Shown here piece after piece: positions 31,642 through 50,891 of a stretch of 52,383 nt of DNA (position 1 is the first letter of the stretch; each line of letters begins with the position of its first letter). The notes beneath the pieces are model-generated. The model was not told where the DNA came from and made no database searches. It saw only the letters and a list, made by a program, of their open reading frames with translations. Source of the DNA: a virus (taxonomy: Duplodnaviria; Caudoviricetes); IMG/VR virus record IMGVR_UViG_3300033145_003438, positions 1 through 52,383 of that record, one strand, 5' to 3'. The position numbers were made by a program, and so were the translations under genes.

Positions 31642-33081
31642 ATGAAAAAAATATTACTTTTAACAATCTTGATTTTGAGTTTTGCGGGCTTTGCAGAGGC
31701 ACAAAATCCGTTTACATTGCCTGCCGGGAGTGGAGGCGGGACAGCCACTGGTGTTGATGCAACCGAGACCATCCAGGGAGACAAAGGAATCGAGCTGATC
31801 CCGAGCGGACCGACTCTGTTTACTGCAAAGGCATTGACCGGCGGTGCGGCCGGTGCCTTGGACTCAATGTCGGTAAGCGATCTTTCTGACAACGATGTTG
31901 CCATCGTTCCGGTTCTCAGCGGGACTACCGTACTTGTCTACCGTTATATCTTCGATGCCGATGGAACGACCGCTGAAAGCTCTCCTACGGTCATTCGACC
32001 GGACGATTATTCATCCGCTGGTGTATGGAGGATAGATATTTTGCCGCCTTCAATGGGTGGATTGGGTATCGATACCTCCGGCCTTACGGGACTGGGCTGG
32101 GTAGGAAATCCTGCGGGTGATTGGAATGTGTTCGGTACGGCTTGGCGGTCAATCTACCTTGACGCCTCATCTAATATTCAGGGAATAACCCTTGGTGCAG
32201 CAAACACATTCCTTGGGTCCGATGGAGCCAGCACAGCACCAAGCTATCAGGCACTTGCGGATGCGGATATCCCTGATACCATAACGATTGCCGGCGGTGC
32301 GGATATTGCTGTCGCCGATGGTGGATCTGGATCGAGTACGGCAGCAGGTGCGAGGTCAAACTTGGGTGCAGGGCAGGAATGGATAGAAGACCCTGAAACA
32401 ACCGATGCTGACCCGGACACTATAACGATAGTCGATGGTGAAAAGATACTGTTACTCTTGACTGCACACCAGGCCGATGTGGACATAACCTTTGCAGAGA
32501 CTAATGCTACGCACATGGATGAAGTTCTGGTCTGTAATGTTAGTTCTGATTCATTGGCGTTTGCAGATAGTGCAGCGGTTTTTGAAACCTCTACTCCTAT
32601 CACGCTTGCACAGGATGAGTGCTTTAGAATGGTGTATAGGACGGATAGGTATGTTGTGACTTCGAGAGATACCAAGGCGGCCTCTTTTGCATCTCTTGAC
32701 ATTTCAGGTGGTCCATTCACCTCTGACATGCAGATGATCGTGCCAGATTCCAAAACCTATACGGGTGTGGATGAGAATCAGACCGTAGGCATAGGTGATG
32801 ATATTGAGAGCTCTGTTGTCCTCGTAACCGCTGTCGATGACAATGGGGATGAATCAATCGACTTACAGGACGGGACTGAAACTGGTATTATGGTAACCTT
32901 TATTGTGATAGCAAATGTAGATGTCACTGACGATGCTTTTATCATAGATGCTGAAACCGATTCAACTTGCACGGGATGTCCTGATGCTGGAATATTCACA
33001 CTTGAAACTGAGGGCAGTTCTGTGACGCTTTATTGGACAGGATCATTTTGGCATTACTGTGGCTCAACGGTAGGTGAATAA
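31642..33081 (+). CDS. Tail-fibre-like protein with Sec signal peptide
   Basis: MKKILLLTILILSFAGFAEA; fibre-type motif VADGGSGSSTAAGARSNLG. Confidence 0.65.
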   Translation: MKKILLLTILILSFAGFAEAQNPFTLPAGSGGGTATGVDATETIQGDKGIELIPSGPTLFTAKALTGGAAGALDSMSVSDLSDNDVAIVPVLSGTTVLVYRYIFDADGTTAESSPTVIRPDDYSSAGVWRIDILPPSMGGLGIDTSGLTGLGWVGNPAGDWNVFGTAWRSIYLDASSNIQGITLGAANTFLGSDGASTAPSYQALADADIPDTITIAGGADIAVADGGSGSSTAAGARSNLGAGQEWIEDPETTDADPDTITIVDGEKILLLLTAHQADVDITFAETNATHMDEVLVCNVSSDSLAFADSAAVFETSTPITLAQDECFRMVYRTDRYVVTSRDTKAASFASLDISGGPFTSDMQMIVPDSKTYTGVDENQTVGIGDDIESSVVLVTAVDDNGDESIDLQDGTETGIMVTFIVIANVDVTDDAFIIDAETDSTCTGCPDAGIFTLETEGSSVTLYWTGSFWHYCGSTVGE

Positions 33082-35886: not shown

Positions 35887-36189
35887 TCACTTAAACAGAT
35901 TTTCAGTATTGTCATTCTCGATACCATAGTCGATCTGAGCGGTTATGCAATCAAGCAGGGCCAATAAAGCCTTTTCTTTTGTATCGCCCTGGGAAACTAT
36001 GTCAAGCGTCGTATATTCAGCAATATAGCAACCCGGTTTTGATTGATAGACCCTCACTGTATTATCCATGGTTTTCACTTTCTCATCCTCTTCGCAAACC
36101 CAACAGCCAAATACATCCATGTCGAGTCCCCAATTTGTTCCACACTTACAACATTCATAGGTTTCTTCCTCGATTAGCCAGACCCGCAA
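35887..36189 (-). CDS. HicB-like partial RNase H fold protein (start may be ATG 36069)
   Basis: YIAEYTTLDIVSQGDTKEKAL motif. Confidence 0.55.
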   Translation of the reverse strand: MRVWLIEEETYECCKCGTNWGLDMDVFGCWVCEEDEKVKTMDNTVRVYQSKPGCYIAEYTTLDIVSQGDTKEKALLALLDCITAQIDYGIENDNTENLFK

Positions 36190-36204
36190 AACATTTGTTA
36201 GTTT

Positions 36205-36384
36205 TTAATCTTCTTCCTTAAACGATATGAGAGAGATTTCCCAGTTTCCGACCTGTAATGATTCCCCCCATTTGGCAACCTGTTTAAGCGTTGTTCCCGG
36301 TGCGTAAACCTTTGTGTGGTTCCGACCGACTCGTTTTACGGCATTTACCAGCTTACAATCTACGATCATCCATTTTTCATCCAT
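36205..36384 (-). CDS. Hypothetical protein (59 aa), not in the ORF track
   Basis: AAGGAG RBS; MDEKWMIVDCKLVNAVKR..FKEED. Confidence 0.55.
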   Translation of the reverse strand: MDEKWMIVDCKLVNAVKRVGRNHTKVYAPGTTLKQVAKWGESLQVGNWEISLISFKEED

Positions 36385-36403
36385 TTTTCATCTCCTTTGT
36401 TGT

Positions 36404-36485
36404 AGGGGCGGGGTGGAATCGAACCACCGATATAGGTTCCCTGAGTTTAAGCATGCCCTATGCGTTACCCCTACGCAACCGCCCC
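36404..36485 (-). tRNA. tRNA-like element with enlarged anticodon loop (identity undetermined)
   Basis: Acceptor GGGGCGG/CCGCCCC, D stem GCGT/ACGC, T arm GGTGG-TTCGATT-CCACC, anticodon stem TAGG/CCTA enclosing 20 nt. Confidence 0.7.
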
Positions 36486-36568
36486 ATATTTTCAAAATCT
36501 CTGTAAACGTACTGTTTTCAATGGTACCCTAATTTTCCGCGAGTCAATTGGTGCGGGCCAGTCCCGTA

Positions 36569-36904
36569 TTAACCCCTATTTATAAAATCCGGTGGAGGAT
36601 CTTTAATGAAGCGTTTTGCTGTCAGCTTCAATCCCTCGGCTTTTGCTTTTATGATTCTATGCCAGCCATCCATAGGATATCCATCTGATCTGAGAATGAT
36701 CGGAATACCACAGTCAGCTTCCTTGACCCGTCTATAATGTGCAACATAATCTCTCAGGTTTGAAATTTTCCATCGGATTATTTCATCAAGTGAAATATCT
36801 GTTGTCTCAAATGGTCTTGCCGTGAGTTCCATGGCTGCACGAATTAATGTTGAATCCCTCCAAATATTTCCCTTAGCATCTATAAAACAATGTTTTAATT
36901 TCAT
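36569..36904 (-). CDS. ParB/Srx-like N-terminal domain protein, copy 1
   Basis: PIILRSDGYPMDGWHRIIKA motif. Confidence 0.7.
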   Translation of the reverse strand: MKLKHCFIDAKGNIWRDSTLIRAAMELTARPFETTDISLDEIIRWKISNLRDYVAHYRRVKEADCGIPIILRSDGYPMDGWHRIIKAKAEGLKLTAKRFIKDPPPDFINRG

Positions 36905-37610
36905 TTTTTTTATCCCTTACCAAATATTTTTTAAATCGCTGAAATTCCTCATCCGTATCAAATTCAACCGGAAAATTTACCCCTACAACACCTATTCGTA
37001 TTTTATGAGCTTTCCAACGTTTATATATAAAATAACCAGCGGAACGCTGAAAATTATCGCCTATAACATCCTGTAAAATATCATGATTAATGATATATGG
37101 GTTTCTTACATAAGTATGGTCCTGTGAGATGTTGTCAGCATTCAAATCTACTGCTATATATTTATTATTGGGAGCACGCACTATTCTTCTTTTGTTACTT
37201 GTCTCATTATTTATATTGCGATAGGCCGATACTACCACATCAAACTTTTCTGCTTTTTCGATCAATTTTTTAAACTGTGTTGGGGATATATAGTCATGAC
37301 CACAAACAACCAAAAATCTTTTAGATAAATTATTTTTAAATATAGTAGGAACAGACGCAAAATTAGGGCCAGTTTGTTTAAGTTTGTAGAATACATGAAA
37401 TGGTTCGATAATGCTTTTGATTGTTTGGTAATTTTTTTTGTTTATAGATATAAAAAATTTTTTCAGCCCTGCTGATTTAGCAGAGTTAATTAATAATTTA
37501 ATCAGGGCTTCCCCGTTATATTCAATCAATGGTTTGCTGTGGTGTGGATTTAGGGCAGAGCTCATTCGTGACCCAATCCCGCCGGCTGCAATAACAATAT
37601 CGGTAATCAT
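36873..37610 (-). CDS. Sugar-phosphate nucleotidyltransferase family protein
   Basis: IVIAAGGIGSRM..KPLIE, LVVCGHD and EFDT.EE motifs; visibly AT-rich. Confidence 0.82.
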   Translation of the reverse strand: MITDIVIAAGGIGSRMSSALNPHHSKPLIEYNGEALIKLLINSAKSAGLKKFFISINKKNYQTIKSIIEPFHVFYKLKQTGPNFASVPTIFKNNLSKRFLVVCGHDYISPTQFKKLIEKAEKFDVVVSAYRNINNETSNKRRIVRAPNNKYIAVDLNADNISQDHTYVRNPYIINHDILQDVIGDNFQRSAGYFIYKRWKAHKIRIGVVGVNFPVEFDTDEEFQRFKKYLVRDKKNEIKTLFYRC

Positions 37611-37753
37611 TACCTACACCCGTGACACGAAGAGCATTGGCGACAGCCAATCTTCGTGCCCCTCTTTTTAATGTTATCGAACATGAAAGTCATAGTCTTC
37701 TCGATTCGATATTTCGGCTTCTGGTATTGCCTCTTTACTTTGTTAGATTTCAT
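37610..37753 (-). CDS. 47-aa Cys-rich peptide, RiPP-precursor-like
   Basis: AAAGGA RBS; YQKP leader motif; C-terminal CRQCSSCHGCR; TAATG coupling to the nucleotidyltransferase. Confidence 0.65.
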   Translation of the reverse strand: MKSNKVKRQYQKPKYRIEKTMTFMFDNIKKRGTKIGCRQCSSCHGCR

Positions 37754-37781
37754 AGTAATCCTTTTTTGAGAGTTTAGCCTA

Positions 37782-38084
37782 TCAAGATGCTGGCGTACAT
37801 TCCCTGCAAATAGCATATCCGTCTGGAGCTGGTATCTGGCCAGAACCGTCACAGGTTTTACAGTTTTTTCTTTTAATTGCTTTAAGTTCTTTCTCACCCT
37901 CGGACCTCCAACTATTGCCATGGTTTTCATGTAAACAAAGCATCCAGTGTATGACAGCGGCCTGTTCTTCTTCAGCTTTTTCCGGAATGTCATGTCCGTC
38001 ACTTCGGAGTATCTGAGCGATTCCGATACAGGTAAAATTGGGGCGGCCTAAAATCCATTTAGTTTCATCGTTTAGTTCGAACAT
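37782..38084 (-). CDS. Phage early hypothetical protein with C-terminal DnaJ-like zinc finger
   Basis: AGGAG RBS; ILGRPNF..KAEEEQAAVIHW domain; CKTCDGSG..CREC. Confidence 0.65.
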   Translation of the reverse strand: MFELNDETKWILGRPNFTCIGIAQILRSDGHDIPEKAEEEQAAVIHWMLCLHENHGNSWRSEGEKELKAIKRKNCKTCDGSGQIPAPDGYAICRECTPAS

Positions 38085-38136
38085 GTTTTCTCCTTTGCGC
38101 TCATCTTTTCCTCCGACAGCCCCCGCAGATCGCCCC

Positions 38137-38382
38137 TCACACTTCGACCCCATCAATTAATTTATCAACGAGTTTCATCAATTCAGGGTCCGGAGATGTG
38201 ACTGATCCGGGCTTGTGTTTTATTTCCCATTGAATATCCTTGAGACACGAATCACACACTCCGATGCGATACATGGCGTACGGTCGGCCACACTTTAAAC
38301 AAAACGCTGATTCAATCATCTCAGCAATATAGCCCCGAACCTTGCATATTTTACCAGCTTCAATAGCATTTATTATGTCCAC
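38137..38382 (-). CDS. Small zinc-finger protein (start uncertain)
   Basis: CLKCG..VCDSC. Confidence 0.5.
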   Translation of the reverse strand: MDIINAIEAGKICKVRGYIAEMIESAFCLKCGRPYAMYRIGVCDSCLKDIQWEIKHKPGSVTSPDPELMKLVDKLIDGVEV

Positions 38383-38585
38383 CTCCTGATCATTCGATGC
38401 TGTTTGACCCCAAGGTTTATTCCCATGTTTTCACGGAGATAATCGCCATGGATTTCAAAGCGAGAGTTTTTCTTTTTCCGCTTTTTAATGTCGTCAAAAT
38501 CAGCATCCACATAATTTGTTGTAACAGCCATCCCATCCCAAAACTCTACTATTTCTATCATTTTTTATTCCTCTGGTTGTGGCCG
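38285..38585. repeat. 301-bp direct repeat, copy 1
   Basis: Near-identical to 39379-39679 (offset 1094). Confidence 0.92.
38373..38561 (-). CDS. Hypothetical protein, paralog A1
   Basis: GAGGA RBS; near-identical to 39467-39655. Confidence 0.65.
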   Translation of the reverse strand: MIEIVEFWDGMAVTTNYVDADFDDIKKRKKKNSRFEIHGDYLRENMGINLGVKQHRMIRRWT

Positions 38586-38986
38586 CAGTCCCGTAGTTCG
38601 GTTTCAAACCAAAAAACCACCGGCTTTTCGACAGCCTCAATTAACCCAAATCGTTCAGCCGTTCTAAAGTTCACCGAAGTTTTTCTTGCACGTTTTACCT
38701 GTTCCGATATTTCAGCCCGAAACACTTCAACGCTCAGTACAGTTTTAAAGAGATTACACGGAGCGCATGACGGGACTATATTTTCAAAATTATCATTTTC
38801 TGGCCGTAATGCCCCCCCCTGTTTCGTGACATAGCGCCCATTGTCCCTAAAACTGTCAGTTTGCCTAAAGATTGGCTTTATGTGGTCGGCGTGCCAACCT
38901 TTTTTAGGGAGATCACATCCACACCACCAGCATCTACCATTCGTTTTATTCCATACTTCCTGTCGCTGTTTTTTTGTGAGCGCCAT
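38558..38986 (-). CDS. HNH endonuclease
   Basis: CWWCG..HADHIKP..NIVPSCAPCNLFK. Confidence 0.85.
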   Translation of the reverse strand: MALTKKQRQEVWNKTNGRCWWCGCDLPKKGWHADHIKPIFRQTDSFRDNGRYVTKQGGALRPENDNFENIVPSCAPCNLFKTVLSVEVFRAEISEQVKRARKTSVNFRTAERFGLIEAVEKPVVFWFETELRDCGHNQRNKK

Positions 38987-39021
38987 ATTTATCCTTGTGG
39001 CCTATTAAGATTGGCCCGTAC

Positions 39022-39357
39022 TTAACCCTCGTTTATAAAATCCGGAGCGGGGTCTTTCTCAAATCTTCGAGCTGTCAACTCTAAACCTTCTGATTTTGCT
39101 TTGATAATTCTATGCCATCCGTCCATCGGATAGCCGTCTGATCTCAGTATGATCGGTACAGAACAATCTGCATTTCGGACACGCCTGTAATGTGCGACAT
39201 AATCTCTCAGATTTGCAATTTTCCATCGGATTACTTCTTCAAGAGACACATCCGAAACTTTAAAAGGGCTGACCGGAAGATACTTTGCGGCTTTTATGAG
39301 AGTTGAGTCTCTCCAAATATTTCCATTGTGGTCGATAAAACAGTGTTTAAGTTTCAT
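39022..39357 (-). CDS. ParB/Srx-like N-terminal domain protein, copy 2
   Basis: Paralog of 36569-36904, roughly three-quarters identical by manual alignment. Confidence 0.7.
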   Translation of the reverse strand: MKLKHCFIDHNGNIWRDSTLIKAAKYLPVSPFKVSDVSLEEVIRWKIANLRDYVAHYRRVRNADCSVPIILRSDGYPMDGWHRIIKAKSEGLELTARRFEKDPAPDFINEG

Positions 39358-39378
39358 TGTAATTCCTTTCTATGGTTG

Positions 39379-39679
39379 CGGCCACACCTTAAACAAAACG
39401 CTGATTCAATCATCTCAGCAATATAGCCCCGAACCTTGCATATTTTACCAGCTTCAATAGCATTTATTATGTCCACCTACTGATCATTCGATGCTGTTTG
39501 ACCCCAAGGTTTATTCCCATGTTTTCACGGATATAATCATCGTGGATTTCAAACCGAGGGTTTTTCCGCTTTCGTTTTTTAATGTCGTCAAAATCAGCAT
39601 CCACATAATTTGTTGTAACAGCCATCCCATCCCAAAACTCTACTATTTCTATCATTTTTTATTCCTCTGGTTGTGGCCG
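39379..39679. repeat. 301-bp direct repeat, copy 2
   Basis: Near-identical to 38285-38585. Confidence 0.92.
39467..39655 (-). CDS. Hypothetical protein, paralog A2
   Basis: Lies within the duplication. Confidence 0.65.
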   Translation of the reverse strand: MIEIVEFWDGMAVTTNYVDADFDDIKKRKRKNPRFEIHDDYIRENMGINLGVKQHRMISRWT

Positions 39680-39877
39680 AAGGTCAGTTCCGTATCCCCG
39701 TTTCAAAAGTTTCAAAATTAGTTTATCGGGCTTGATAGATTTTACACGGAACAAACTTCCCTTGACTTCAACCTGTTCGCCTACACGAAAAGCCCCTGAG
39801 TTTAACGGGTATTCCCCTTCCGCTTGATCAAAAACATGTTCCGGTATTTCCTCAAACTTTCCATTTCCTGAATCCAT
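39659..39877 (-). CDS. Hypothetical protein (SH3-like barrel?)
   Basis: AGGAGGAG RBS; FRVGEQVEVKGSLFRVKSI. Confidence 0.65.
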   Translation of the reverse strand: MDSGNGKFEEIPEHVFDQAEGEYPLNSGAFRVGEQVEVKGSLFRVKSIKPDKLILKLLKRGYGTDLRPQPEE

Positions 39878-39878
39878 T

Positions 39879-40121
39879 TTACTCCTCCTTTGATTTTATA
39901 ATGCAGTACGAATGAATGCCGTAAACCCTGCCTAAATCCTCTTTGATGTAATCCTGGTGGATTTCCATCCGTGGGTGGTTTTTATGTCGTTTTTTCAGAT
40001 CGTTCAGGTCGGCCTCAATATATATTTCGCTCTGCACCTCATAACCCGGCAATACCCTGGTACCGAATGGTGCGTCCGGGTCGTCTTGCACTTTGTTCCA
40101 AAATTTCGTTACTGTTATCAT
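39879..40121 (-). CDS. Hypothetical protein, divergent paralog A3
   Basis: YIEADLNDLKKR..RMEIHQDYIKEDLG aligns with YVDADFDDIKKR..RFEIHDDYIRENMG. Confidence 0.65.
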   Translation of the reverse strand: MITVTKFWNKVQDDPDAPFGTRVLPGYEVQSEIYIEADLNDLKKRHKNHPRMEIHQDYIKEDLGRVYGIHSYCIIKSKEE

Positions 40122-40159
40122 GCTATCACCCTTCCCGTGAGAGGCAGGCCCGTATCATC

Positions 40160-40444
40160 CTAATCTTGTCCCGCATGTTTCTTTAAAAGCCCCTGTTTTA
40201 TTTTATCGATTAAACGAGATCCACATTTCATAGAGTCACCGTTGACCATCTTATCAAGGCTATGAGATTTAGATTTAATCCTTGACCTAAACTTACCGGC
40301 CTTCAGGTTCGCTAATTCCTCTACAGATTTAAGGGACAATACTTGTCTTTCTCTATTGTCGATCTGCGCATTAATATAGCCTGCATAATAGCCATTCTCG
40401 TATGCTAATTCGCAAACTCTAAGATCATCTTTTGTCATTTTCAT
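40160..40444 (-). CDS. Hypothetical protein
   Basis: GGGGAG RBS, 94-aa ORF. Confidence 0.6.
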   Translation of the reverse strand: MKMTKDDLRVCELAYENGYYAGYINAQIDNRERQVLSLKSVEELANLKAGKFRSRIKSKSHSLDKMVNGDSMKCGSRLIDKIKQGLLKKHAGQD

Positions 40445-40524
40445 TTGTGCTCCCCCATTAAATACCTATAAATTACTGTTTTACCTGCATATTCCATGCG
40501 CAAGCGTTGCAATCGGCCAGGCCC

Positions 40525-41574
40525 CTATGCCGGGTATTGATCCCAGGTTTCACCGCTCAACATTCTACCAGCTTTCTTTTTGCCAACCTTTTTCATTCTG
40601 TAATTTTGATCAAAGCGGTAAGACCCATCAGGCAACAAACCAAAAGTATTTGATTGCTCATACTTTGGGTTCTTGCATTGTTCCCATTCTCCCCATTGTT
40701 TGAAAAAAAAAGGCACGTTGGCCTTTATACATTGCCACGCCAAAGATGCCGCCCATTCCGGGTGCATCGGTCGTGCCCCTGGTCCCGATTCGCCGCCGCA
40801 GATAACCCAATCAATAGACGGAAGTTTTGTTGATTCTATTCTTCCGAGTGACCAATCAATATCAACCGGCCCAAGCATCGGCTCAACAGAAACAAACCTG
40901 GCAGCAGCCGGGATCTGCAACAGAATAGGGATTCGCTCATCGGCTCTTTTCTGGTTTTCGGCGGTGGTACCTATCAATATATTGGGAATAGGCCATGTAT
41001 CACACCAATCCTGTCTCTGTAAATGATACCCAAGATCACCGTTTAGTAATTGTTCTGCTCGTTCAGGACGCTTTGTTAAAAATAAAAATTGGTGCCGGGG
41101 CAACATTCCAGCGATTTGAAATATTGAAAATAACCAATTCCATTCAACATCATCGTGAAAAATATCGCTCATCGAACAGACAAATATTCTCTTTGGTTTT
41201 TTCCAATCCCCGGGTTGATGTAATCGGTCTGGTTGGTTTGTAACCTTGAACGGCTCATCTTTAGGATACCCATACCGACCGGCCAGGCGTTTTGACATGC
41301 GTTCGGCATAGCAATTTTGGCACCCTTCAGATATTTTGGTGCATCCTGTTACCGGATTCCATGAAGCTGTTGCCCACTCTATGCTTGTTTCTGCCATTTC
41401 AAATACCTCCTCCTTATTATGCCGATTCCCATACTTCTCAAACCATTCCGAAGATACAGGATTGCCCCGGTACCCACACTCAGGACATTCTTTCATGTTG
41501 ATAAAGTTTTTCCGTGGTTGCATTTCCACCCCGCAATTCGGGCAATGTGTTTTCTCTGATTCAATTATTTTCAT
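40525..41574 (-). CDS. DUF5131 (phage gp37/gp68) radical-SAM-like protein with N-terminal zinc ribbon
   Basis: TSIEW..WNPVTGCTKISEGCQNCYA, FVCSMSDIFH, LTKRP, WVICGGESG, FFFKQWG; internal start at 41397. Confidence 0.88.
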   Translation of the reverse strand: MKIIESEKTHCPNCGVEMQPRKNFINMKECPECGYRGNPVSSEWFEKYGNRHNKEEVFEMAETSIEWATASWNPVTGCTKISEGCQNCYAERMSKRLAGRYGYPKDEPFKVTNQPDRLHQPGDWKKPKRIFVCSMSDIFHDDVEWNWLFSIFQIAGMLPRHQFLFLTKRPERAEQLLNGDLGYHLQRQDWCDTWPIPNILIGTTAENQKRADERIPILLQIPAAARFVSVEPMLGPVDIDWSLGRIESTKLPSIDWVICGGESGPGARPMHPEWAASLAWQCIKANVPFFFKQWGEWEQCKNPKYEQSNTFGLLPDGSYRFDQNYRMKKVGKKKAGRMLSGETWDQYPA

Positions 41575-42178
41575 TGCTCTCCACCCTTTTAAATTCCACA
41601 ACCCAAACCCAAGGATTCGATTTCCACGAATGCTTTTTTTTGTTGATCAAGTCCCATAAGTACATAAAAGATGTGTGCGCATTAGGTGCGTAGGTGTTGT
41701 AGTCATCAATCGTAACCCCGTAAAAATCTTGGCTACTGTATTTATCTCGTTCAATGAATTGTATACCCTCTTTTATTGCATCCTCGTTTGAAATATCCTG
41801 CACCCGTTCAACCCGGACGTTGGTGATTTCGAGATTGATACGTGAGGCCCACCGGGGCATGAAGATTGACGGTTTCCACTTGCACAGCTCATCTTCCAGG
41901 TGCGATGGAAAGTCACCATCGGCTCTATAAAAAAGACCATCATCTTCAATGCTGCTGTTGGTTATAAAGGCAAATGTTTCCTTCACATAAAGACGATCAC
42001 CGGGAACACCGTAGGGGCACTTGGCATAGTTTTTTATATAATAATTGCGCCATTCGCTTTCAGTGAGAGTTTCATCAAGTGTTTTTGATAGTTTAACAAC
42101 CCTCCGAGTTACAGATTTTCGATTGTCTAATATAGCCCTCACCATAGGGGCGGAAAAAAGTATCGGTTTTTCCTTCAT
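41561..42178 (-). CDS. ASCH/PUA-like phage protein
   Basis: PILFSAPMVRAIL..K..TRR, WKPSIFMPRWASRI and NPWVWVVEF motifs. Confidence 0.8.
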   Translation of the reverse strand: MKEKPILFSAPMVRAILDNRKSVTRRVVKLSKTLDETLTESEWRNYYIKNYAKCPYGVPGDRLYVKETFAFITNSSIEDDGLFYRADGDFPSHLEDELCKWKPSIFMPRWASRINLEITNVRVERVQDISNEDAIKEGIQFIERDKYSSQDFYGVTIDDYNTYAPNAHTSFMYLWDLINKKKHSWKSNPWVWVVEFKRVESNENN

Positions 42179-42263
42179 GGTTTTTATCCTCCATATAATA
42201 CTTATAATCTACTGAAATGTTTAAGTAAACTCTGCGATATTATTTATTTGTGCCAGGCCCGTA

Positions 42264-42738: not shown

Positions 42739-42855
42739 GATTGCTCCATAAAATTGTTCACAAATTGACCGCGTTTTTGGTTTAATTTGGAGAGATTTGG
42801 AGAGAAAACAAAAAAAGGCTTTCAAGCCTAATCGCCTGAAAACCCTTGGTGTTAT

Positions 42856-42901
42856 TGGTGGGCCGTCCGAGAATCGAACTCGGAACCTACTGATTAAGAG
42901 T
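42856..42901 (-). other. attP: attP core: 3' half of tRNA-Lys(CTT)
   Basis: Reverse complement ACTCTTAATCAGTAGGTTCCGAGTTCGATTCTCGGACGGCCCACCA = anticodon loop to CCA; 5' half absent; about 70 nt downstream of the integrase. Confidence 0.85.
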
Positions 42902-42970: not shown

Positions 42971-43951
42971 TCAATATGAGAACTTTCTCCCCTCCCTCTT
43001 GAGCGTCTCCTGTAAAATCTTTGCGTAAATTTCGGTTGTTTTTATATCAACATGCCCGAGCCATTCCTTGACGACCTCAAGGGCAATCCCGCTTTTTAAC
43101 ATCTGCGTGCCGAATGTATGCCGGGTGTGGTGAAGGTGAACATCCTCAATACCGCATGCCCTGGCGATCACCTTAAACGCTTTGGTATACTTTGACAGGT
43201 CGTTCCAATGGGTGAAAACATATCCGATGTCTTTTTCCTGGCCCATAGCCTCTTTTGTTCCGGACAGGATAGGTATGGTTCTTTCTTTATCGCCTTTTCC
43301 GATCAGCCGCAGGGTATCACCGTGGACATCCTGCCATTTCAGCCGGGCTATTTCTTCTCTACGAGCTCCGGTCCAAAGAGCAAATTTAATTACCCGGTAC
43401 ATTTCATAATTATTTTTCGTGGCATATTTGAGCATATTTTCGCGTTCTTTGTCGGTCAATATTCTCGGATGCCGTTCCGGGAGCTTGAACTCGACAACCG
43501 GCACTTTCTTTTTAATGTCACCCCAAGCATGGGCCTTATTCAAAATGCCCCTGATATGCCGGAGGTATGTATTGACAGATACTTTTTTAACCCTTCTGGT
43601 CAAGCAGATAGCCTTAAATTCGTCTATTTTATGTTCATTGATACGTGAGAGTAGGGTAGAGGCTCCAAACGCCTCAGAGAGCAGCTTGAAGGCCAGTTCA
43701 TAGGCTTCAATGGTCTTGTCTGATATGTCGGTGTGTTTCAGGAAAAAGCGATCCTTGAATTGTTTAATGGTAATCCGTTTTTTATCGTCAAGTTCTTCAA
43801 GTTTGCCCTTTAAATATTTGCGCTTCATTATATTATAAAGCGCCGTGGCCTCTCGTTTGTTTTTGGTTTTGAGAGCACGCGGTTTATCGCGCTCAAACTC
43901 GTAATAGTAATATCCGTTTTTTCTTTTAAATAGTCGCATGGATATTTTCAT
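42971..43951 (-). CDS. int: Tyrosine integrase
   Basis: TGARREE, GKGDKER, HHTRHTF, LGHVDIKTTEIY catalytic residues. Confidence 0.95.
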   Translation of the reverse strand: MKISMRLFKRKNGYYYYEFERDKPRALKTKNKREATALYNIMKRKYLKGKLEELDDKKRITIKQFKDRFFLKHTDISDKTIEAYELAFKLLSEAFGASTLLSRINEHKIDEFKAICLTRRVKKVSVNTYLRHIRGILNKAHAWGDIKKKVPVVEFKLPERHPRILTDKERENMLKYATKNNYEMYRVIKFALWTGARREEIARLKWQDVHGDTLRLIGKGDKERTIPILSGTKEAMGQEKDIGYVFTHWNDLSKYTKAFKVIARACGIEDVHLHHTRHTFGTQMLKSGIALEVVKEWLGHVDIKTTEIYAKILQETLKREGRKFSY

Positions 43952-45263: not shown

Positions 45264-47921
45264 CTATGCCTCAATATTAGCGCGTTGAGGCTCGCGCGAC
45301 TGAATATCCATTTCTTTGATAAATCGTGATATCGGGTTATGATAAATCTTGCCCGATTTGCTTTCCTTGGTTTCCGGTCGGGCTGTGAGGATCAAGTGAT
45401 CTTCGGCCCTGGTGACCGCTACGTAGCAAAGGCGGCGTTCATCCTCTATATTATCAGAGGATATCGCCTGTTTTGAGGGGAGAAGGCCCTCGTTCATGCC
45501 GGCTATGATGACAATCGGGAACTCAAGGCCTTTCGCGCCATGGATCGTCATCAGTTGGATCCCTTCAGTTTCTTCGGTGATTTCATCCTGCAGGTCATAG
45601 GTGGCCAACCAGTCAAGATATAGAATGATTGGGCCTACTTCGCTCGGAATGTCTTTCATTTTCGGGTGATCATTTTCCCATTTCAGAATAAAATCACAGA
45701 TATCCTTGGTGTTAAATAGCACGCCTAAAGATTCCCCCATAATGCGAACCAGTCCACCAAGGTCGTGTGACCGGGAGGCAATTTCAATATCACGCCACCA
45801 CGACTCTCTGTAGTTATCTTTCCATGCCTGAAAATGGCTTTTTCCTTCCATAATTGACCGAAATCGAACCTTGCTATATTCCCCATCGCTTAAATTAATG
45901 AAGTCCTTAATCAACAGAAATGCAAAGTTGTCATAGGGATTGACGATCAATTTCAAAACAGCGTGGAATCGTCTGAACTCTTCTGACCTGGTGAGCTCAG
46001 TTTTGCGGCCCACATAGGTATGCGGAACATTTTCTTCCTTTAGTATGGAAGAAAGTTTCTTTAATAGGATGTGGTTTCTCGACAAGATCGCCATGTCCTT
46101 TAGGTCAAAGGCTTCCAGTTCAACAATTCCCTTCAGGTATCCGGCCAGGAAGTTACTATCGAAGTTTCGTTTTACGGTGACCACATCCTTGTTGGAATTC
46201 CTGGTGGCAATCATGGTCTTTTCAAGGCGTGATGAATTGTTGACGATCAGTTGATTTGCTGAATAAACAATGTCCAAGTCAGACCGGTAATTTAGTTCAA
46301 GACGATAAATGTCGAATTCGTCTTGGTGTTCCAGAAGATATTCCGGTACGGCACCGCGAAAGGAATAGATGCTATTGCAAGTACAAAGGCCGTCGGCAAC
46401 GTAGGTGTGATATTTTTCAACATCTAAGCTATAAACAGACAATTTTTCTACATTCTCAAACGATATGTCTTTTATCGGGGACCATTTTATAAAACGGGTG
46501 CCTTCTTTTTGCGGAAGACAAAAGAATCCTGCCCTCAAATTATGGGTAGATATCTGAAAAATTGTTTTCCCCCCCTGCTTTTTATGGTCGCCGTTATTAT
46601 TAAAAAATGGGTGTGCCATACTAAGTTTATGATCGGAAAGAATTTTCTTTGCGTTTGTTTCCAGGTGCCACAAAGAATTAAAAACATAATCGATTCCTTC
46701 TTGGTCATAGTATTTGGCATTATTGGTGGCTTTAAATGTGATGGTGGGTATTCCATACTGCGCAGCCAAGATGCTTTCCAATAGAGATGCTTGTTTTTTT
46801 GTATCGCAAAATCTTAATATCCAAGCACAATCTGCGCCTTCAAGGCGAACGCGAGTATAAAAATGAATGCCCGGGTGTCCGTTCCTGAATAGTTGGCACC
46901 ATCCTATTCTAAATCGATTTCCTTTTTTCATTAAATAGACAACATTCCACTTGTGGTCCCTTGCCCAATCTGACCATTTCACATACCATTTATGATTATC
47001 GGTACACGATGTTGCCTTACCTCCTTTAACCCTGATCGTCCTAAGAATTCCTGTAAATTTTCTTTTTTTGATTGAAAATTTATATCCTTTGTTATGGCCG
47101 CCATAAATCATGGCGTCATGTTTGCAATATACCTTCAATTCGTCCTTTTCAGGATCAAGTGATTCAATTGGCTTCGCTCCATTGGTAGTAATAACCATCG
47201 TCCCTTCAGGTTGGCATTGATCGATGTCACCCACCACAAAGAGGGATGCACCGAACGCCTCAACCATTTTGTTGATGATTCTCCACTGAAGGGGATCGAT
47301 GTCCTGAACTTCGTCGACAAGGATATGTTTGTAATGAAGATGCTTTGCCATGGTATCGATGAGCATTTCCAGGCCGATCAGGAGGCCGCCGTAGGTCAAT
47401 GAGTTGTTTTCGCGGCAACGAGCCATAAAAGCTTTGAACAGAGGATAGGTTTTATCCAACTCATTCGGAACAATTCCTTTTTGATAATAATTATTTAAAG
47501 TAAGATCGATGTCCGCCTTCTTGGGATTCCAACCCTTTTTAAAGACTCCCATTTCTTTGGCGATTTCTTTTAGGAGAAAGGCCTCTTCCCATGCCCCATA
47601 TACTGTAATAGAGTTCGGCCGCATGCCGATGATCTCCCCGAACCGATGGAGCATGCTCAATGCCAGTGAGTGCATGGTTCCCATGGTGACGTTATGGGCG
47701 GTCGACCCCAGGCGGTCTTCAAGACGGGTTTTCATCTCCTGGGCGGCTTTTCTGGTGAAGGTGAACGAAAGAATTTCATAGGGCGAAACTTTTTCATCTT
47801 CAACCAGGTGCGCTATTCGTTCGGTCAGAACTCGAGTCTTTCCTGATCCGGCCCCGGCCAAAACGAGCACACTTTTTCCTTTGGCGAATACGGCTTTTTC
47901 TTGGTTTTTGTCTAATTGCAT
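45264..47921 (-). CDS. uvrD: UvrD/PcrA SF1 helicase containing an intein
   Basis: AGAGSGKT, TFTRKAA, VDEVQD, VGDIDQ-[intein]-SIYSFRGA, TIHGAKGLEF, ERRLCYVAVTRA. Confidence 0.92.
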   Translation of the reverse strand: MQLDKNQEKAVFAKGKSVLVLAGAGSGKTRVLTERIAHLVEDEKVSPYEILSFTFTRKAAQEMKTRLEDRLGSTAHNVTMGTMHSLALSMLHRFGEIIGMRPNSITVYGAWEEAFLLKEIAKEMGVFKKGWNPKKADIDLTLNNYYQKGIVPNELDKTYPLFKAFMARCRENNSLTYGGLLIGLEMLIDTMAKHLHYKHILVDEVQDIDPLQWRIINKMVEAFGASLFVVGDIDQCQPEGTMVITTNGAKPIESLDPEKDELKVYCKHDAMIYGGHNKGYKFSIKKRKFTGILRTIRVKGGKATSCTDNHKWYVKWSDWARDHKWNVVYLMKKGNRFRIGWCQLFRNGHPGIHFYTRVRLEGADCAWILRFCDTKKQASLLESILAAQYGIPTITFKATNNAKYYDQEGIDYVFNSLWHLETNAKKILSDHKLSMAHPFFNNNGDHKKQGGKTIFQISTHNLRAGFFCLPQKEGTRFIKWSPIKDISFENVEKLSVYSLDVEKYHTYVADGLCTCNSIYSFRGAVPEYLLEHQDEFDIYRLELNYRSDLDIVYSANQLIVNNSSRLEKTMIATRNSNKDVVTVKRNFDSNFLAGYLKGIVELEAFDLKDMAILSRNHILLKKLSSILKEENVPHTYVGRKTELTRSEEFRRFHAVLKLIVNPYDNFAFLLIKDFINLSDGEYSKVRFRSIMEGKSHFQAWKDNYRESWWRDIEIASRSHDLGGLVRIMGESLGVLFNTKDICDFILKWENDHPKMKDIPSEVGPIILYLDWLATYDLQDEITEETEGIQLMTIHGAKGLEFPIVIIAGMNEGLLPSKQAISSDNIEDERRLCYVAVTRAEDHLILTARPETKESKSGKIYHNPISRFIKEMDIQSREPQRANIEA
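46374..47216 (-). mobile_element. Intein (281 aa) in UvrD motif III
   Basis: Begins CQPEGTMV; block B CTDNHKW; ends VYSLDVEKYHTYVADGLCTCN followed by Ser+1; removal restores GDIDQSIYSFRGA. Confidence 0.92.
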
Positions 47922-48253
47922 AGTTCCCCCTTTTCATAGTACCTCCGAGTTTTTGAATCATAGTTGAGTAGGTCTTTTTTCATATGGCAGGGCAGGCACA
48001 GTAAATTGCAGTTTTCAAATGTGTCCAACCGAAGGATGCTTCGTTTAATGACATGATCAATGGTGAGCTGTCTGGGCTTGAATTTTTTAAGACAGGCACG
48101 ACAAGTATAATTTTGAAGCAGCATTACTTGTTTCTTGAATTTGCTATATGCGTGACCCTTACCCAGGTTGACGGCCTGTTTTGGAACGGCAAACCCCGTC
48201 CAGTCCACCGGCAGTTTCCTTCTGGGTTTTATTTTGGGATCAGGAATTATCAT
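47912..48253 (-). CDS. HNH endonuclease (NinG-like position)
   Basis: CRAC..TIDHVIKRS..N..LLCLPCH. Confidence 0.8.
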   Translation of the reverse strand: MIIPDPKIKPRRKLPVDWTGFAVPKQAVNLGKGHAYSKFKKQVMLLQNYTCRACLKKFKPRQLTIDHVIKRSILRLDTFENCNLLCLPCHMKKDLLNYDSKTRRYYEKGELCN

Positions 48254-48927
48254 TTTGTTGGATTTAAATATGCTGTTTCGCCATGATAAGTTTTGGCGGC
48301 TTCATTATATGCCTTGGCAGCTTCTTTTCGGTTTTTATAAAGACCAAGGTGAATTTGTTTGTGGTTAACCGTGATATAGGCTCTCCATTTATTAGTTGGC
48401 TTGTGCATGGACACACCTTTATATTTGCCAATCGGTGGTTTTTGAATCATAGCGAGTCGTGAATTTTCTTTATTTGATAGCCAGCGACAATTTTTGGGTT
48501 CGTAGCTTCGACTAGAATCAATACGATCTATCGTAAGGATATCATTATATCCGTTGCTGTCAGCCCAGTCTTTAAACGCCAAGAAGTCCTTTTTCCACTC
48601 ATCACAGACGATAACGCCTTTCCCACCGTAGTTTTTGTATTGATGGTCATTGGGGTTGCTGCATCGGTAGTTCATTTGTCCCCAAATTCGGTAAAGTCGG
48701 GTTTTAGTCATCCCATGTTTAAACGTTCGTTTCGCCGTTGCTTCGCTAAGCAGACACCCGCAACTTCTGGTATTTCCAGAAACCAAGCTTCTGGCAAGGA
48801 CTACGCTTGTGTTGCCACAATCGCATTGGCACTTCCATAATATCTCACGGAATCTGGTTATGCCTTTTTTGCGGACGACCAACAGCCTTCCAAATTTTTT
48901 TCCAATAAGATTTAATTTTTTACCCAT
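48250..48927 (-). CDS. HNH-AP2 homing-endonuclease-like protein
   Basis: GKKFGRL..CQCDCG..SCGC, YGGKG..VCDEW, TIDRID..Y..NCRW, and AP2 domain YKGVS..KWRAYI..HLG..AAKAYN. Confidence 0.85.
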   Translation of the reverse strand: MGKKLNLIGKKFGRLLVVRKKGITRFREILWKCQCDCGNTSVVLARSLVSGNTRSCGCLLSEATAKRTFKHGMTKTRLYRIWGQMNYRCSNPNDHQYKNYGGKGVIVCDEWKKDFLAFKDWADSNGYNDILTIDRIDSSRSYEPKNCRWLSNKENSRLAMIQKPPIGKYKGVSMHKPTNKWRAYITVNHKQIHLGLYKNRKEAAKAYNEAAKTYHGETAYLNPTK

Positions 48928-49863: not shown

Positions 49864-50891
49864 TAGGCGGCCTCCTTTCTCAGAAAGAGCATGGACTCTT
49901 TTTTGCACTGAAGAACTACGGCCATAGCGTCTACCTTTTCAGCCACGGCCATAATGCGGTTGATGGAATCCAGAGGGTCCGGGGTTGTTGGAATGTTCGC
50001 TGTTTTCCTTTTAAGGGACGATTCAGCGTTTTGTCGGTTTCTTTCATCCGGATCCAACCGGCTCGAAGCAGACCCAATGCCCGGTGACTCGGTTTTTTTT
50101 TCCGGCTTCTCGGTGTCCCGGACATTCGCAGGGCCTCTATCGATCAACTTGGCTTTTCGTGCCTTCTCTTCCAGATCCCGTTTCTCTTCAGCCTCTTTTT
50201 CTGCCTTTTTTGTGGCTTCCAGGGCTGCAAGATCTTCCCGAGCCTTGGAAAGCTCGGCATTGCAAGCCTTGTATTCATCTTTAGTTTTACCTATTTCATC
50301 CCGAATCTCTGCCAGGGACCCGGAGGGAAGTTCGATTTCGGCCTTGGCCTTCATCAACTCAGAAACCACGCTTTCCTTGCCCTTGATGCTTTTTTGTTTG
50401 GATAAGAGGTCATAGGTTAGCTCCTCTATTTTGACATCCAGCTTAGATACATCGTCACCAGGCGGGAAAAGGTCGAACAGGTAATCGATCTTCTTTTGAT
50501 CGGAGAGGTCAAGAAATGCTTCCCCCAGATCAAGGATGGATGGAGCTCCGGCCTTGGCCATCTTTTCAATAAAGTCGGATTTGTTGGCCTTTCTCCTGTT
50601 GATGAGAAAGTCTTGCTTGACGGTTCCTTTTTTATCGCGGGAAAATCGTCTCAGGTAATGAGTCTTTTTGATCTCTCCCGACACAAACAGTTTTTCCCCG
50701 GCCCCGAAGTTGTCCAGGATCGCTGCGTTCTGCTTGGCTGTACCCGGAACATACCCCAAACAAAGAAGCATGAGCGCAATGGACCTGGCGCTTTTACCGG
50801 ACCCATTGCGGCCTATGATGAGATTCTTTTCAGAAAGATCCTGGGTGAAGTCCATACCCTTGAACCCTTCTGCTTTTATTTCTGTTATCAT
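49863..50891 (-). CDS. SMC/Rad50-like ABC ATPase, N-terminal half
   Basis: MITEIKAEGFKG..NLIIGRNGSGKS Walker A followed by coiled coil. Confidence 0.8.
   Translation of the reverse strand: MITEIKAEGFKGMDFTQDLSEKNLIIGRNGSGKSARSIALMLLCLGYVPGTAKQNAAILDNFGAGEKLFVSGEIKKTHYLRRFSRDKKGTVKQDFLINRRKANKSDFIEKMAKAGAPSILDLGEAFLDLSDQKKIDYLFDLFPPGDDVSKLDVKIEELTYDLLSKQKSIKGKESVVSELMKAKAEIELPSGSLAEIRDEIGKTKDEYKACNAELSKAREDLAALEATKKAEKEAEEKRDLEEKARKAKLIDRGPANVRDTEKPEKKTESPGIGSASSRLDPDERNRQNAESSLKRKTANIPTTPDPLDSINRIMAVAEKVDAMAVVLQCKKESMLFLRKEAA

Follow-up and report, generated by a model that had tools for sequence, protein, structure and literature searches.

In the accessory arm of an uncultured temperate phage of Desulfobacterota, a 12-nucleotide (nt) motif recurs in a single orientation at nearly every gene boundary. 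The phage is represented by the 52,383-bp IMG/VR provirus record IMGVR_UViG_3300033145_003438 (CheckV completeness 74%), the whole of which is referred to here as the window. The motif array occupies the accessory arm, which extends from attP and the integrase gene to the convergent end of the late operon, and this is the position at which lambda-like phages carry optional genes. Analysis of the window confirmed that the motif is real, strand-specific and tied to the gene boundaries of the accessory region. The leading interpretation, which is put forward tentatively, predicts from the sequence pattern that the 12-mer is a strand-specific recognition site for a trans-acting factor and serves as regulatory punctuation.

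Enrichment and placement of the motif

Searching the window with the word TACGGGNCTGNC and allowing at most one mismatch gave nine matches against 1.53 +/- 1.21 expected, and none of 100 shuffles reached nine, which answers the question of enrichment over background that an earlier, sequence-only reading of the window had set as a check on its own claim. The word is not palindromic. Seven of the nine matches lie within 36177-42263 (6.1 kb), all of them on the minus strand; eight of the nine are on the minus strand overall, and all nine are on the strand that is locally coding. Exact matches number three on the minus strand, with none on the plus strand and none for a reversed control pattern. 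Three genomes of the Desulfobacterota host lineage (2.7-4.9 Mb) hold 4-6 exact matches each, which is fewer than for the control pattern. The copies at gene boundaries are as follows (A and A' are paralogues, as are B, B' and o80; see below).

42252-42263, minus strand: s7, TACGGGCCTGGC, directly after the TAG of an open reading frame (ORF) of 81 residues and 73 nt before the ATG of the 205-residue phrog_874 gene.
40516-40527, minus strand: s6, TAGGGGCCTGGC, its first three bases (TAG) ending the DUF5131 gene; the ATG of a 94-residue ORF follows after 71 nt.
40143-40154, minus strand: s5, TACGGGCCTGCC, 5 nt after the TAG of the 94-residue ORF and 21 nt before the ATG of o80.
39683-39694, minus strand: s4, TACGGAACTGAC, within the last 12 codons of a 72-residue ORF and 27 nt before the ATG of B'.
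39013-39020, minus strand: s3, a half copy, TACGGGCC, 1 nt after the TAA of gene A'.
38584-38595, minus strand: s2, TACGGGACTGCG, within the last codons of the HNH gene, in a frame that differs from that of s4; 22 nt before the ATG of B.
38115-38127, minus strand: a decayed copy, TGCGGGGGCTGTC, with one extra G, in the gap after B2 and before the next ribosome-binding site (RBS); outside the statistics.
36557-36568, minus strand: s1, TACGGGACTGGC, directly after the TAA of gene A and 71 nt before a tRNA-like gene.
36177-36188, minus strand: s0, a variant, TGCGGGTCTGGC, 16 nt after the TAA of a 59-residue ORF; the probable ATG of a 100-residue ORF is about 18 nt further on.

The seven copies quoted in the sequence-only reading were all recovered in place on the minus (coding) strand, and s0 and the decayed copy are boundary copies in addition to those seven. 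The copy ending at 40154 had been described as abutting a stop codon; its position is correct, but the real stop is the TAG 5 nt upstream and the adjacent TGA is out of frame. Four of the seven intergenic gaps of the array hold a copy with at most one mismatch and none of the 17 gaps elsewhere in the window does (Fisher p=0.003), in counts that use simple heuristic gene calls and leave out s0, s2 and s4 (located in the tail or an extension of an ORF) as well as the half copy s3. The distance from the core to the next start is either 18-27 nt or 71-73 nt, and the core is without AGGAG. An in-frame rule for the motif was considered and is false: s2 and s4 lie in ORF tails but in different frames, and therefore no coding or frame rule applies.

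Two matches fall outside the array. One, at 46278 on the minus strand, is inside a gene. The other is the plus-strand match TACGGGACTGGG (32085-32096), which is on the coding strand inside a 479-residue late gene, away from any boundary, and is probably due to chance.

A conserved core within two kinds of linker

The cores of the seven full copies are identical at 8-11 of 12 positions in pairwise comparison (21 pairs), with a mean of 9.5 (79%), whereas the ungapped 20-nt flanks of the same pairs are identical at 1-10 of 20 positions with means of 5.6 and 5.0, which is the chance level. Several of the genes that adjoin the copies are paralogues, which allows the conservation of the core to be set beside that of the genes.

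36569-36904, minus strand: gene A, 111 residues, phrog_17560; its paralogue A' is at 39022-39357 (73% nucleotide identity), and both have a motif copy directly after them.
39879-40121, minus strand: o80, which together with B (38373-38561) and B' (39467-39655) makes up the B family; all three genes are 21-27 nt downstream of a motif copy.
38558-38986, minus strand: a free-standing HNH endonuclease gene, phrog_2118 (E=3.2e-50), bracketed by s3 and s2.

The proteins of B and o80 share 39-40% identity and the genes agree at 125 of 243 nt, and the cores upstream of them are identical at 10 of 12 positions while their spacers differ. A hairpin shared by the sites was found in none of the eight, their folding z scores ranging from -0.93 to +2.15 and lying above zero at seven, and no inverted partner of the motif was found. 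A sharp, oriented and unstructured 12-mer that recurs in almost all gaps of a single co-transcribed region and is kept beside paralogues with 39-40% identity has the pattern of a recognition site.

Other signals that might reside in the motif were looked for. Terminator or sigma-70 promoter patterns coincide with none of the copies; with 21.7 sigma-70-like sites expected, 21 were counted, and none incorporates the motif. The curated covariance models of Rfam 15 gave no match at the motif copies, and the only one to match anywhere was the tRNA model at 36404-36485. Readings of the motif as a sigma-54, extracytoplasmic function (ECF) or sigma-28 promoter were checked by eye and rejected, as the spacing and the second elements are missing. 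To our knowledge the motif has no contiguous match to 16S rRNA with which it could pair.

The linkers in which the core is embedded are of two kinds. Short linkers (s0, s2, s3, s4 and s5) place the core 18-27 nt before the next ATG, and three of them have a GGCCACAA box before the RBS; the half copy s3, for example, is followed by AATCTTAATA, then the GGCCACAA box and then the RBS of the HNH gene. The sequence-only reading had several copies followed by GGCC(A/G)CAA ahead of the next RBS, and the box is indeed present at four places.

38577-38584, 38995-39002, 39376-39383 and 39671-39678, minus strand: GGCCACAA/GGCCRCAA boxes, the second half of the short-type linker; the first is before the RBS of B, and the third is a lone box, GGCCGCAA, that precedes gene A'.

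In the long linkers (s1, s6 and s7) the core is flush with the stop codon and 71-73 nt before the next gene, and the spacer holds a further conserved element.

42187-42214, minus strand: the 28-nt long-spacer block CAGTA..TTATA.GTATT..ATGG.GGA, at the same offset as 40451-40478 after s6.

The blocks of s6 and s7 are identical at 22 of 28 positions (p=0.0015, 2000 shuffles), and s6 and s1 have a related block in common (p=0.006).

attP, the integrase and the predicted prophage state

42856-42901, minus strand: the attP identity block, which matches host tRNA-Lys(CTT) over its last 46 nt, anticodon loop through CCA.

The block sits just downstream of int (42971-43951, minus strand), which encodes a tyrosine integrase. 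Over its first 45 nt it matches, at 100% identity, tRNA genes of several genomes in the class to which a Desulfosarcina metagenome-assembled genome (MAG) belongs, and all four fetched loci have a full host tRNA-Lys gene in which identity starts at the anticodon loop, which defines attB. Judged by this identity, the tRNA-Lys(CTT) 3' block after int is the attP, and comparison of attP with attB indicates that in the prophage state the accessory genes would be directly downstream of the host tRNA-Lys gene and in the same orientation. On the P' side of attP are a terminator hairpin (42814-42847) and a direct repeat, TCTCTCCAAA, present twice (42788-42805, minus strand), which are likely arm-type sites. 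For 50-80 nt past the tRNA end there is also similarity (about 78-84% over 96 nt) to what follows tRNA-Lys in many host-class genomes.

The integrase is Xer-like by its best matches, all of which are below their cut-offs, and it scores 66.8 bits against the 265-bit cut-off for integron integrases (NCBIfam TIGR02249). No significant similarity to the motif was found in the attP/attB crossover region or the arm repeats when eight sites were compared with 3000 random windows: the best local score to attP was 20, for s1, which is the 99th percentile of the random windows, and the other seven sites were at or below the 95th percentile. The possibility that the motif is a secondary att site for the integrase, or a copy of the tRNA 3' end or attP, was thus rejected, the similarity being at the random level once the eight tests are allowed for.

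A candidate recognition site for a phage regulator

In the interpretation that is tentatively preferred, the 12-nt word would be the conserved core of a family of intergenic linkers that punctuates the accessory arm. A phage regulator would bind the asymmetric site on DNA and so control transcription running through the accessory genes. Integration would put the arm behind the host tRNA-Lys gene in the same direction, where control of through-transcription would make sense. As a by-product, the direct repeats and the GGCCRCAA box, the latter more clearly, would have provided points of short homology for the duplication and insertion of genes. We infer that a factor binds the motif, that it acts on DNA rather than RNA, and that expression is affected. 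If the motif is a recognition site, an RNA site and a promoter element are both less likely than a DNA operator; the particular form that is modeled on stoperators, in which a phage regulator binds the operator on DNA, is the likeliest mechanism within this reading but, taken by itself, possible and doubtful.

Stoperators of Cluster A mycobacteriophages, which are bound by a repressor of the L5 gp71 type, are described as asymmetric sites that for the most part face one way relative to transcription and have a consensus specific to the phage, and the motif is like them in being short (12-13 bp), asymmetric, repeated, oriented and phage-specific in consensus (PMC6550527). They differ in that stoperators are spread genome-wide, one of them overlapping the early lytic promoter, whereas the motif has 8-9 copies in one 6-kb arm. 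Stoperators are located at or near gene boundaries and are present in at least 20 copies per genome.

Several points weigh against a recognition site. No binding factor, gp71-like or other repressor, was recognized by family match among the ORFs scanned (Pfam, PHROGs, NCBIfam) in a record that is about 74% complete and lacks about a quarter of the genome. The sites occupy only 6 kb, in contrast to the genome-wide spread of stoperators, and in the three long gaps (80-85 nt) the core is always flush with the upstream stop codon, a position that a DNA operator does not need. Every copy is tied to a paralogous pair or trio (s1/s3, s2/s4/s5, s6/s7/s1), and therefore descent together with gene conversion could mimic constraint. 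The junctions of A/A' and of a 300-nt direct repeat, described below, fit a role in recombination equally well. The argument from constraint draws on a single genome: the motif is absent from all the relative loci that were fetched, the nearest of which has 55-56% portal identity, and the weight of the finding is limited by having one genome without relatives.

The search for relatives was made along several routes. Comparison with INPHARED phages by blastn gave 28 records, each with at most 4% query coverage. IMG/VR yielded no relative by the integrase, 15 loci by the phrog_874 protein (all at most 46% identical), 80 by DUF5131 (all at most 53%), seven by the terminase (all at most 56%) and three by gene A, and none by the 94-residue ORF or a B-family profile; a DNA pattern for the long element gave 0 matches there. 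A search of GTDB genomes by the portal found three loci, all at most 55% identical. Among metagenome contigs, the integrase had a 92% match on a contig of 1 kb, from which it follows that relatives exist, and matches of 53% on two others; none of the three contigs reached an array. In 401 genomes of the host class, the DNA of the array matched only at tRNA-Lys and DUF5131, and the B family was found in 0 of 401. Three other phage contigs carry a homologue of gene A (76%, 57% and 57% identity), in each case without the motif after the stop codon. Two fetched loci with 4-5 matches to the 8-nt half motif were set aside as chance occurrences in coding DNA of 55-65% GC.

Comparison with other repeated elements

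Three further systems share features with the array. Start-associated sequences and their extended form (SAS/ESAS) in Cluster K phages resemble the motif as asymmetric elements of the 13-bp class that lie in one orientation in the non-structural half and are absent from the host genome, and according to the same source they include the Shine-Dalgarno core and stand 3-7 bp ahead of start codons (PMC3203893). The motif instead adjoins the upstream stop codon and is 18-73 nt from the next start. Promoter early stem-loop (PeSL) elements of T4-type phages are, as their description has it, intergenic repeats that run from the upstream stop codon to the downstream Shine-Dalgarno sequence in hyperplastic optional regions, in which respect the linkers are like them; they consist of a sigma-70 promoter and a stable stem-loop, and mediate insertions, deletions and the formation of mini-circles by recombination (PMC2839356). 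The elements described here differ from PeSLs in having no promoter and no stem-loop, and most pairs share only 12 nt. Integron attC arrays have in common with the motif array co-oriented accessory genes, a repeated site at the end of each unit and a tyrosine recombinase gene nearby, but attC is an imperfect inverted repeat of about 55-140 nt that forms a hairpin at the 3' end of every cassette, whereas the motif array has no palindrome or hairpin, no IntI and a site that does not travel with the gene; the phage integrase, unlike that of an integron, is encoded in the same direction as the array and has a tRNA attP of its own. Identification of the motif as an attC, a PeSL or an SAS was ruled out on the grounds, respectively, that there is no palindrome or IntI, that there is no promoter or stem-loop, and that it is at the wrong end of the gap.

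Possible recombination at the linkers

The chief rival reading, which is possible though unlikely, is that the main role of the linkers is in recombination. Much as PeSLs do, they would allow modules to be gained, lost or duplicated by homologous or microhomology recombination, carried out by the phage NinB/Orf protein, an SbcC-like ATPase or the host, and no sequence-specific factor would be needed.

38285-38584, minus strand: copy 1 of the 300-nt direct repeat (B and the 5' part of B2); copy 2 is 39379-39678, with 96% identity.

The homology between A and A' (73% at the nucleotide level) runs from the ATG into the core, where it breaks off at TACGGG. The 300-nt repeat starts at CGGCCACAACC (the GGCCACAACC box), 1 nt after s2 and 5 nt after s4, and upstream of s2 and s4 there is an older, weaker similarity (TTTGAAAC, 5 nt, then the core). 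Across the motif, neighbors vary for one and the same gene: gene A is followed by the tRNA-like gene and A' by the HNH gene, and B is preceded by the HNH gene and B' by the 72-residue ORF. The array also has a free-standing HNH gene, three families of paralogues and G+C contents at third codon positions (GC3) of 0.27 to 0.54, and genes for NinB/Orf and an SbcC-like ATPase are present in the phage. The view that the array is duplicated and plastic was borne out by A/A', the three B paralogues and the 300-nt repeat, and the array does lie beside attP and int; the motif is confined to this plastic region, as PeSLs mostly are according to their description (PMC2839356).

Against such a role, most pairs of sites share just 12 nt with random flanks, which is short for homologous exchange. 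The other end of the 300-nt repeat is at GTGTGGCCG, inside B2, in copy one, and in the other copy it is fused to the GGCCGCAACC box upstream of A', so that the far junction is GGCCG, a microhomology of 5-8 nt. Since the repeat starts at a GGCCRCAACC box and ends at this microhomology in B2, the recent event did not use the 12-mer itself. A far junction within a gene and with microhomology points to ordinary illegitimate recombination, which speaks against a dedicated system for capture and exchange. A duplication of 301 bp ending at two of the motifs had been proposed; one end in each copy does lie 1 or 5 nt past a motif, but the other is at GGCCG and the length is 300 nt. That duplications end near the motif is in any case weak evidence, for nearly every gap holds a copy and a gene-scale duplication must therefore end near one.

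The 11-12 differences between the two copies of the repeat all lie within about 45 nt of gene B, the remainder being identical, and B' agrees with o80 at two residues. Clustered in this way, the differences look like a conversion patch or mosaic and not like clock-like divergence.

Less likely readings: RNA signals, promoters, cassettes and passive descent

A signal at the RNA level, acting on a polycistronic transcript as a processing site for an endonuclease, a site for a translational regulator or an antitermination loading site behind stop codons, is improbable; its processing and antitermination forms were the second option of the sequence-only reading. It would account for the presence of copies on the transcribed sense strand only and for the five of eight copies that are 0-5 nt after a stop codon; the context is unstructured, with folding z above zero at seven of eight sites, and an RNA site would therefore be accessible; and one copy precedes the tRNA-like gene, which must be cut from a longer RNA. 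Yet no RNase or RNA-binding protein was recognized among the ORFs scanned, two copies lie inside ORF tails in different frames, no Rfam family was found at the sites, and the G+C-rich word resembles no processing site that we know of.

Somewhat less probable still is a phage-specific promoter element for one temporal class of genes, recognized by a sigma-like factor or a phage RNA polymerase, or, in the long spacers, an activator site placed some 45-51 nt ahead of a -10-like hexamer. Promoters are the commonest cause of oriented intergenic repeats in phages, a gene start lies 18-73 nt downstream of every copy, and the long spacers have a TATAAG or TATAGG block at a fixed 45 nt from the core. 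In the short class, however, the core and the ATG are no more than 18-27 nt apart, RBS included, and the core is G+C-rich and is not followed by a consistent A+T-rich melting region. The sigma-70-like sites are unenriched and none is on a copy, as noted above, and the scans revealed neither a phage RNA polymerase nor a sigma factor, the 3837-residue protein of the late region having only LPD1 and 2H-phosphoesterase domains.

An integron-like platform, in which cassettes would be captured and excised at the 12-nt sites by the adjacent integrase or another recombinase, is very unlikely. The array does begin about 700 nt from int and attP, and its cassettes are co-oriented with the site at the 3' end of the unit. 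But the core is unlike the attP/attB crossover and has no inverted repeats or hairpins, the Xer-like integrase is far under the integron cut-off, and the units comprise 1-6 genes. The three homologues of gene A without the site argue further against it, since they indicate that the motif does not travel with the cassette. Of the original proposal of cassette shuffling there stand a real, oriented boundary motif in a plastic region, a homology between the A genes that ends in the motif and a repeat that starts just after it; a dedicated system for capture and exchange finds no support. Least likely of all is that the copies have no function and passively remain from serial segmental duplications, which would explain why each is in a paralogous pair or trio but not a core that keeps 79% mean identity between flanks at chance level, even beside paralogues with 39-40% identity.

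Genes of the array

The units between motif copies hold 1-6 genes, all co-oriented. They are the phrog_874 and DUF5131 genes, which co-occur in only some other phages and in variable order; the 94-residue orphan; o80 and the 72-residue ORF; B', a truncated B2' and A'; the HNH endonuclease gene alone; B, B2, a 124-residue ORF, a MobA-like nucleotidyltransferase gene and A; and the tRNA-like gene followed by the 59- and 100-residue ORFs. The B family consists of uncharacterized proteins of 62-80 residues with conserved MIxIxE(Y/F)W, LDDLKxR and YGIHSY, and has about 10 distant members among 1.84 billion representatives. The family was considered as a DNA-binding regulator and rejected: the AlphaFold model is beta-rich (predicted local distance difference test 92.3), and a Foldseek search against the PDB returned nothing at E<=0.001. 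Gene A and phrog_874 had no matches among PDB sequences.

The word GGCTATATT recurs five times in coding regions of the array (36029, 38333, 39427, 40380 and 42136, minus strand), and in the 100-residue ORF, B2/B2' and the 94-residue ORF it encodes a shared G/C-Y-I peptide motif; the 100-residue ORF is presumably HicB-like in this stretch.

The tRNA-like gene (36404-36485, minus strand) scored 46.2 bits with the Rfam tRNA model in sensitive mode and was unlisted in the gathering-mode run. It has 20 nt in the anticodon-loop region, where the model has 9, and ARAGORN assigned it a 4-base anticodon (taaa); from these features it may be an interrupted, frameshift-type or decayed tRNA.

Genome layout

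Late genes on the plus strand, for the terminase, portal, major head protein and a 3837-residue polyvalent protein, extend to 35857, and the minus-strand arm runs from 52148 down to 35887. The protein database assigns o80 to a 64.7-kb contig, roughly 12 kb longer than the window. This arm encodes the SbcC-like ATPase, NinB/Orf, two HNH proteins, a D12 methyltransferase, a UvrD-like helicase and an HTH_17 Xis-like protein in addition to the integrase. By the portal, the nearest relatives are prophages in Desulfosarcina (55-56%), Syntrophus (45%) and another deltaproteobacterial MAG (43%).

The 3837-residue virion-module protein (19704-31217, plus strand) has, besides LPD1, a 2H-phosphoesterase/Acb1-like domain at residues 834-944, of the kind directed against the cyclic-oligonucleotide-based antiphage signaling system (CBASS), and is 54% identical over 1438 residues to a protein of the Desulfosarcina prophage. 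The UvrD-like helicase (45264-47921, minus strand; 885 residues) contains an insertion of about 230 residues (284-513) with a weak match to intein splicing (E=7.7e-4, below the cut-off), and is adjoined by the two HNH genes, at 47912-48253 and 48250-48927, the latter also with an AP2 domain. In the Desulfosarcina prophage, 4-5 tandem 10-nt repeats (ATCCACACGA) at 50340-50385 are iteron-like and lie in the non-structural arm; a crude k-mer scan of that prophage showed no analogous repeat at gene ends.

Implications for phage accessory regions

The accessory regions of phages, which hold anti-defense and host-takeover genes, turn over fast, and their organization is little known outside T4-like and actinobacterial phages. 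If the interpretation favored here is true, the motif would be a third independent example of genome punctuation, after stoperators/SAS and PeSLs, in a phage of sulfate-reducing or syntrophic Deltaproteobacteria. It is also conceivable, if a long shot, that the 12-mer is a boundary site without a hairpin that hugs stop codons and is read by a phage factor, encoded in the unsequenced quarter of the genome or represented by the Xer-like integrase acting on single half-sites, either to insulate and time modules one by one or to move them site-specifically. Were modules moved, this would be a phage-borne, integron-like capture platform that operates on a simple linear site. A binding factor, if one exists, would provide a handle on the silencing or timing of optional genes, and if the sites are points of exchange they would offer a way to predict module boundaries.

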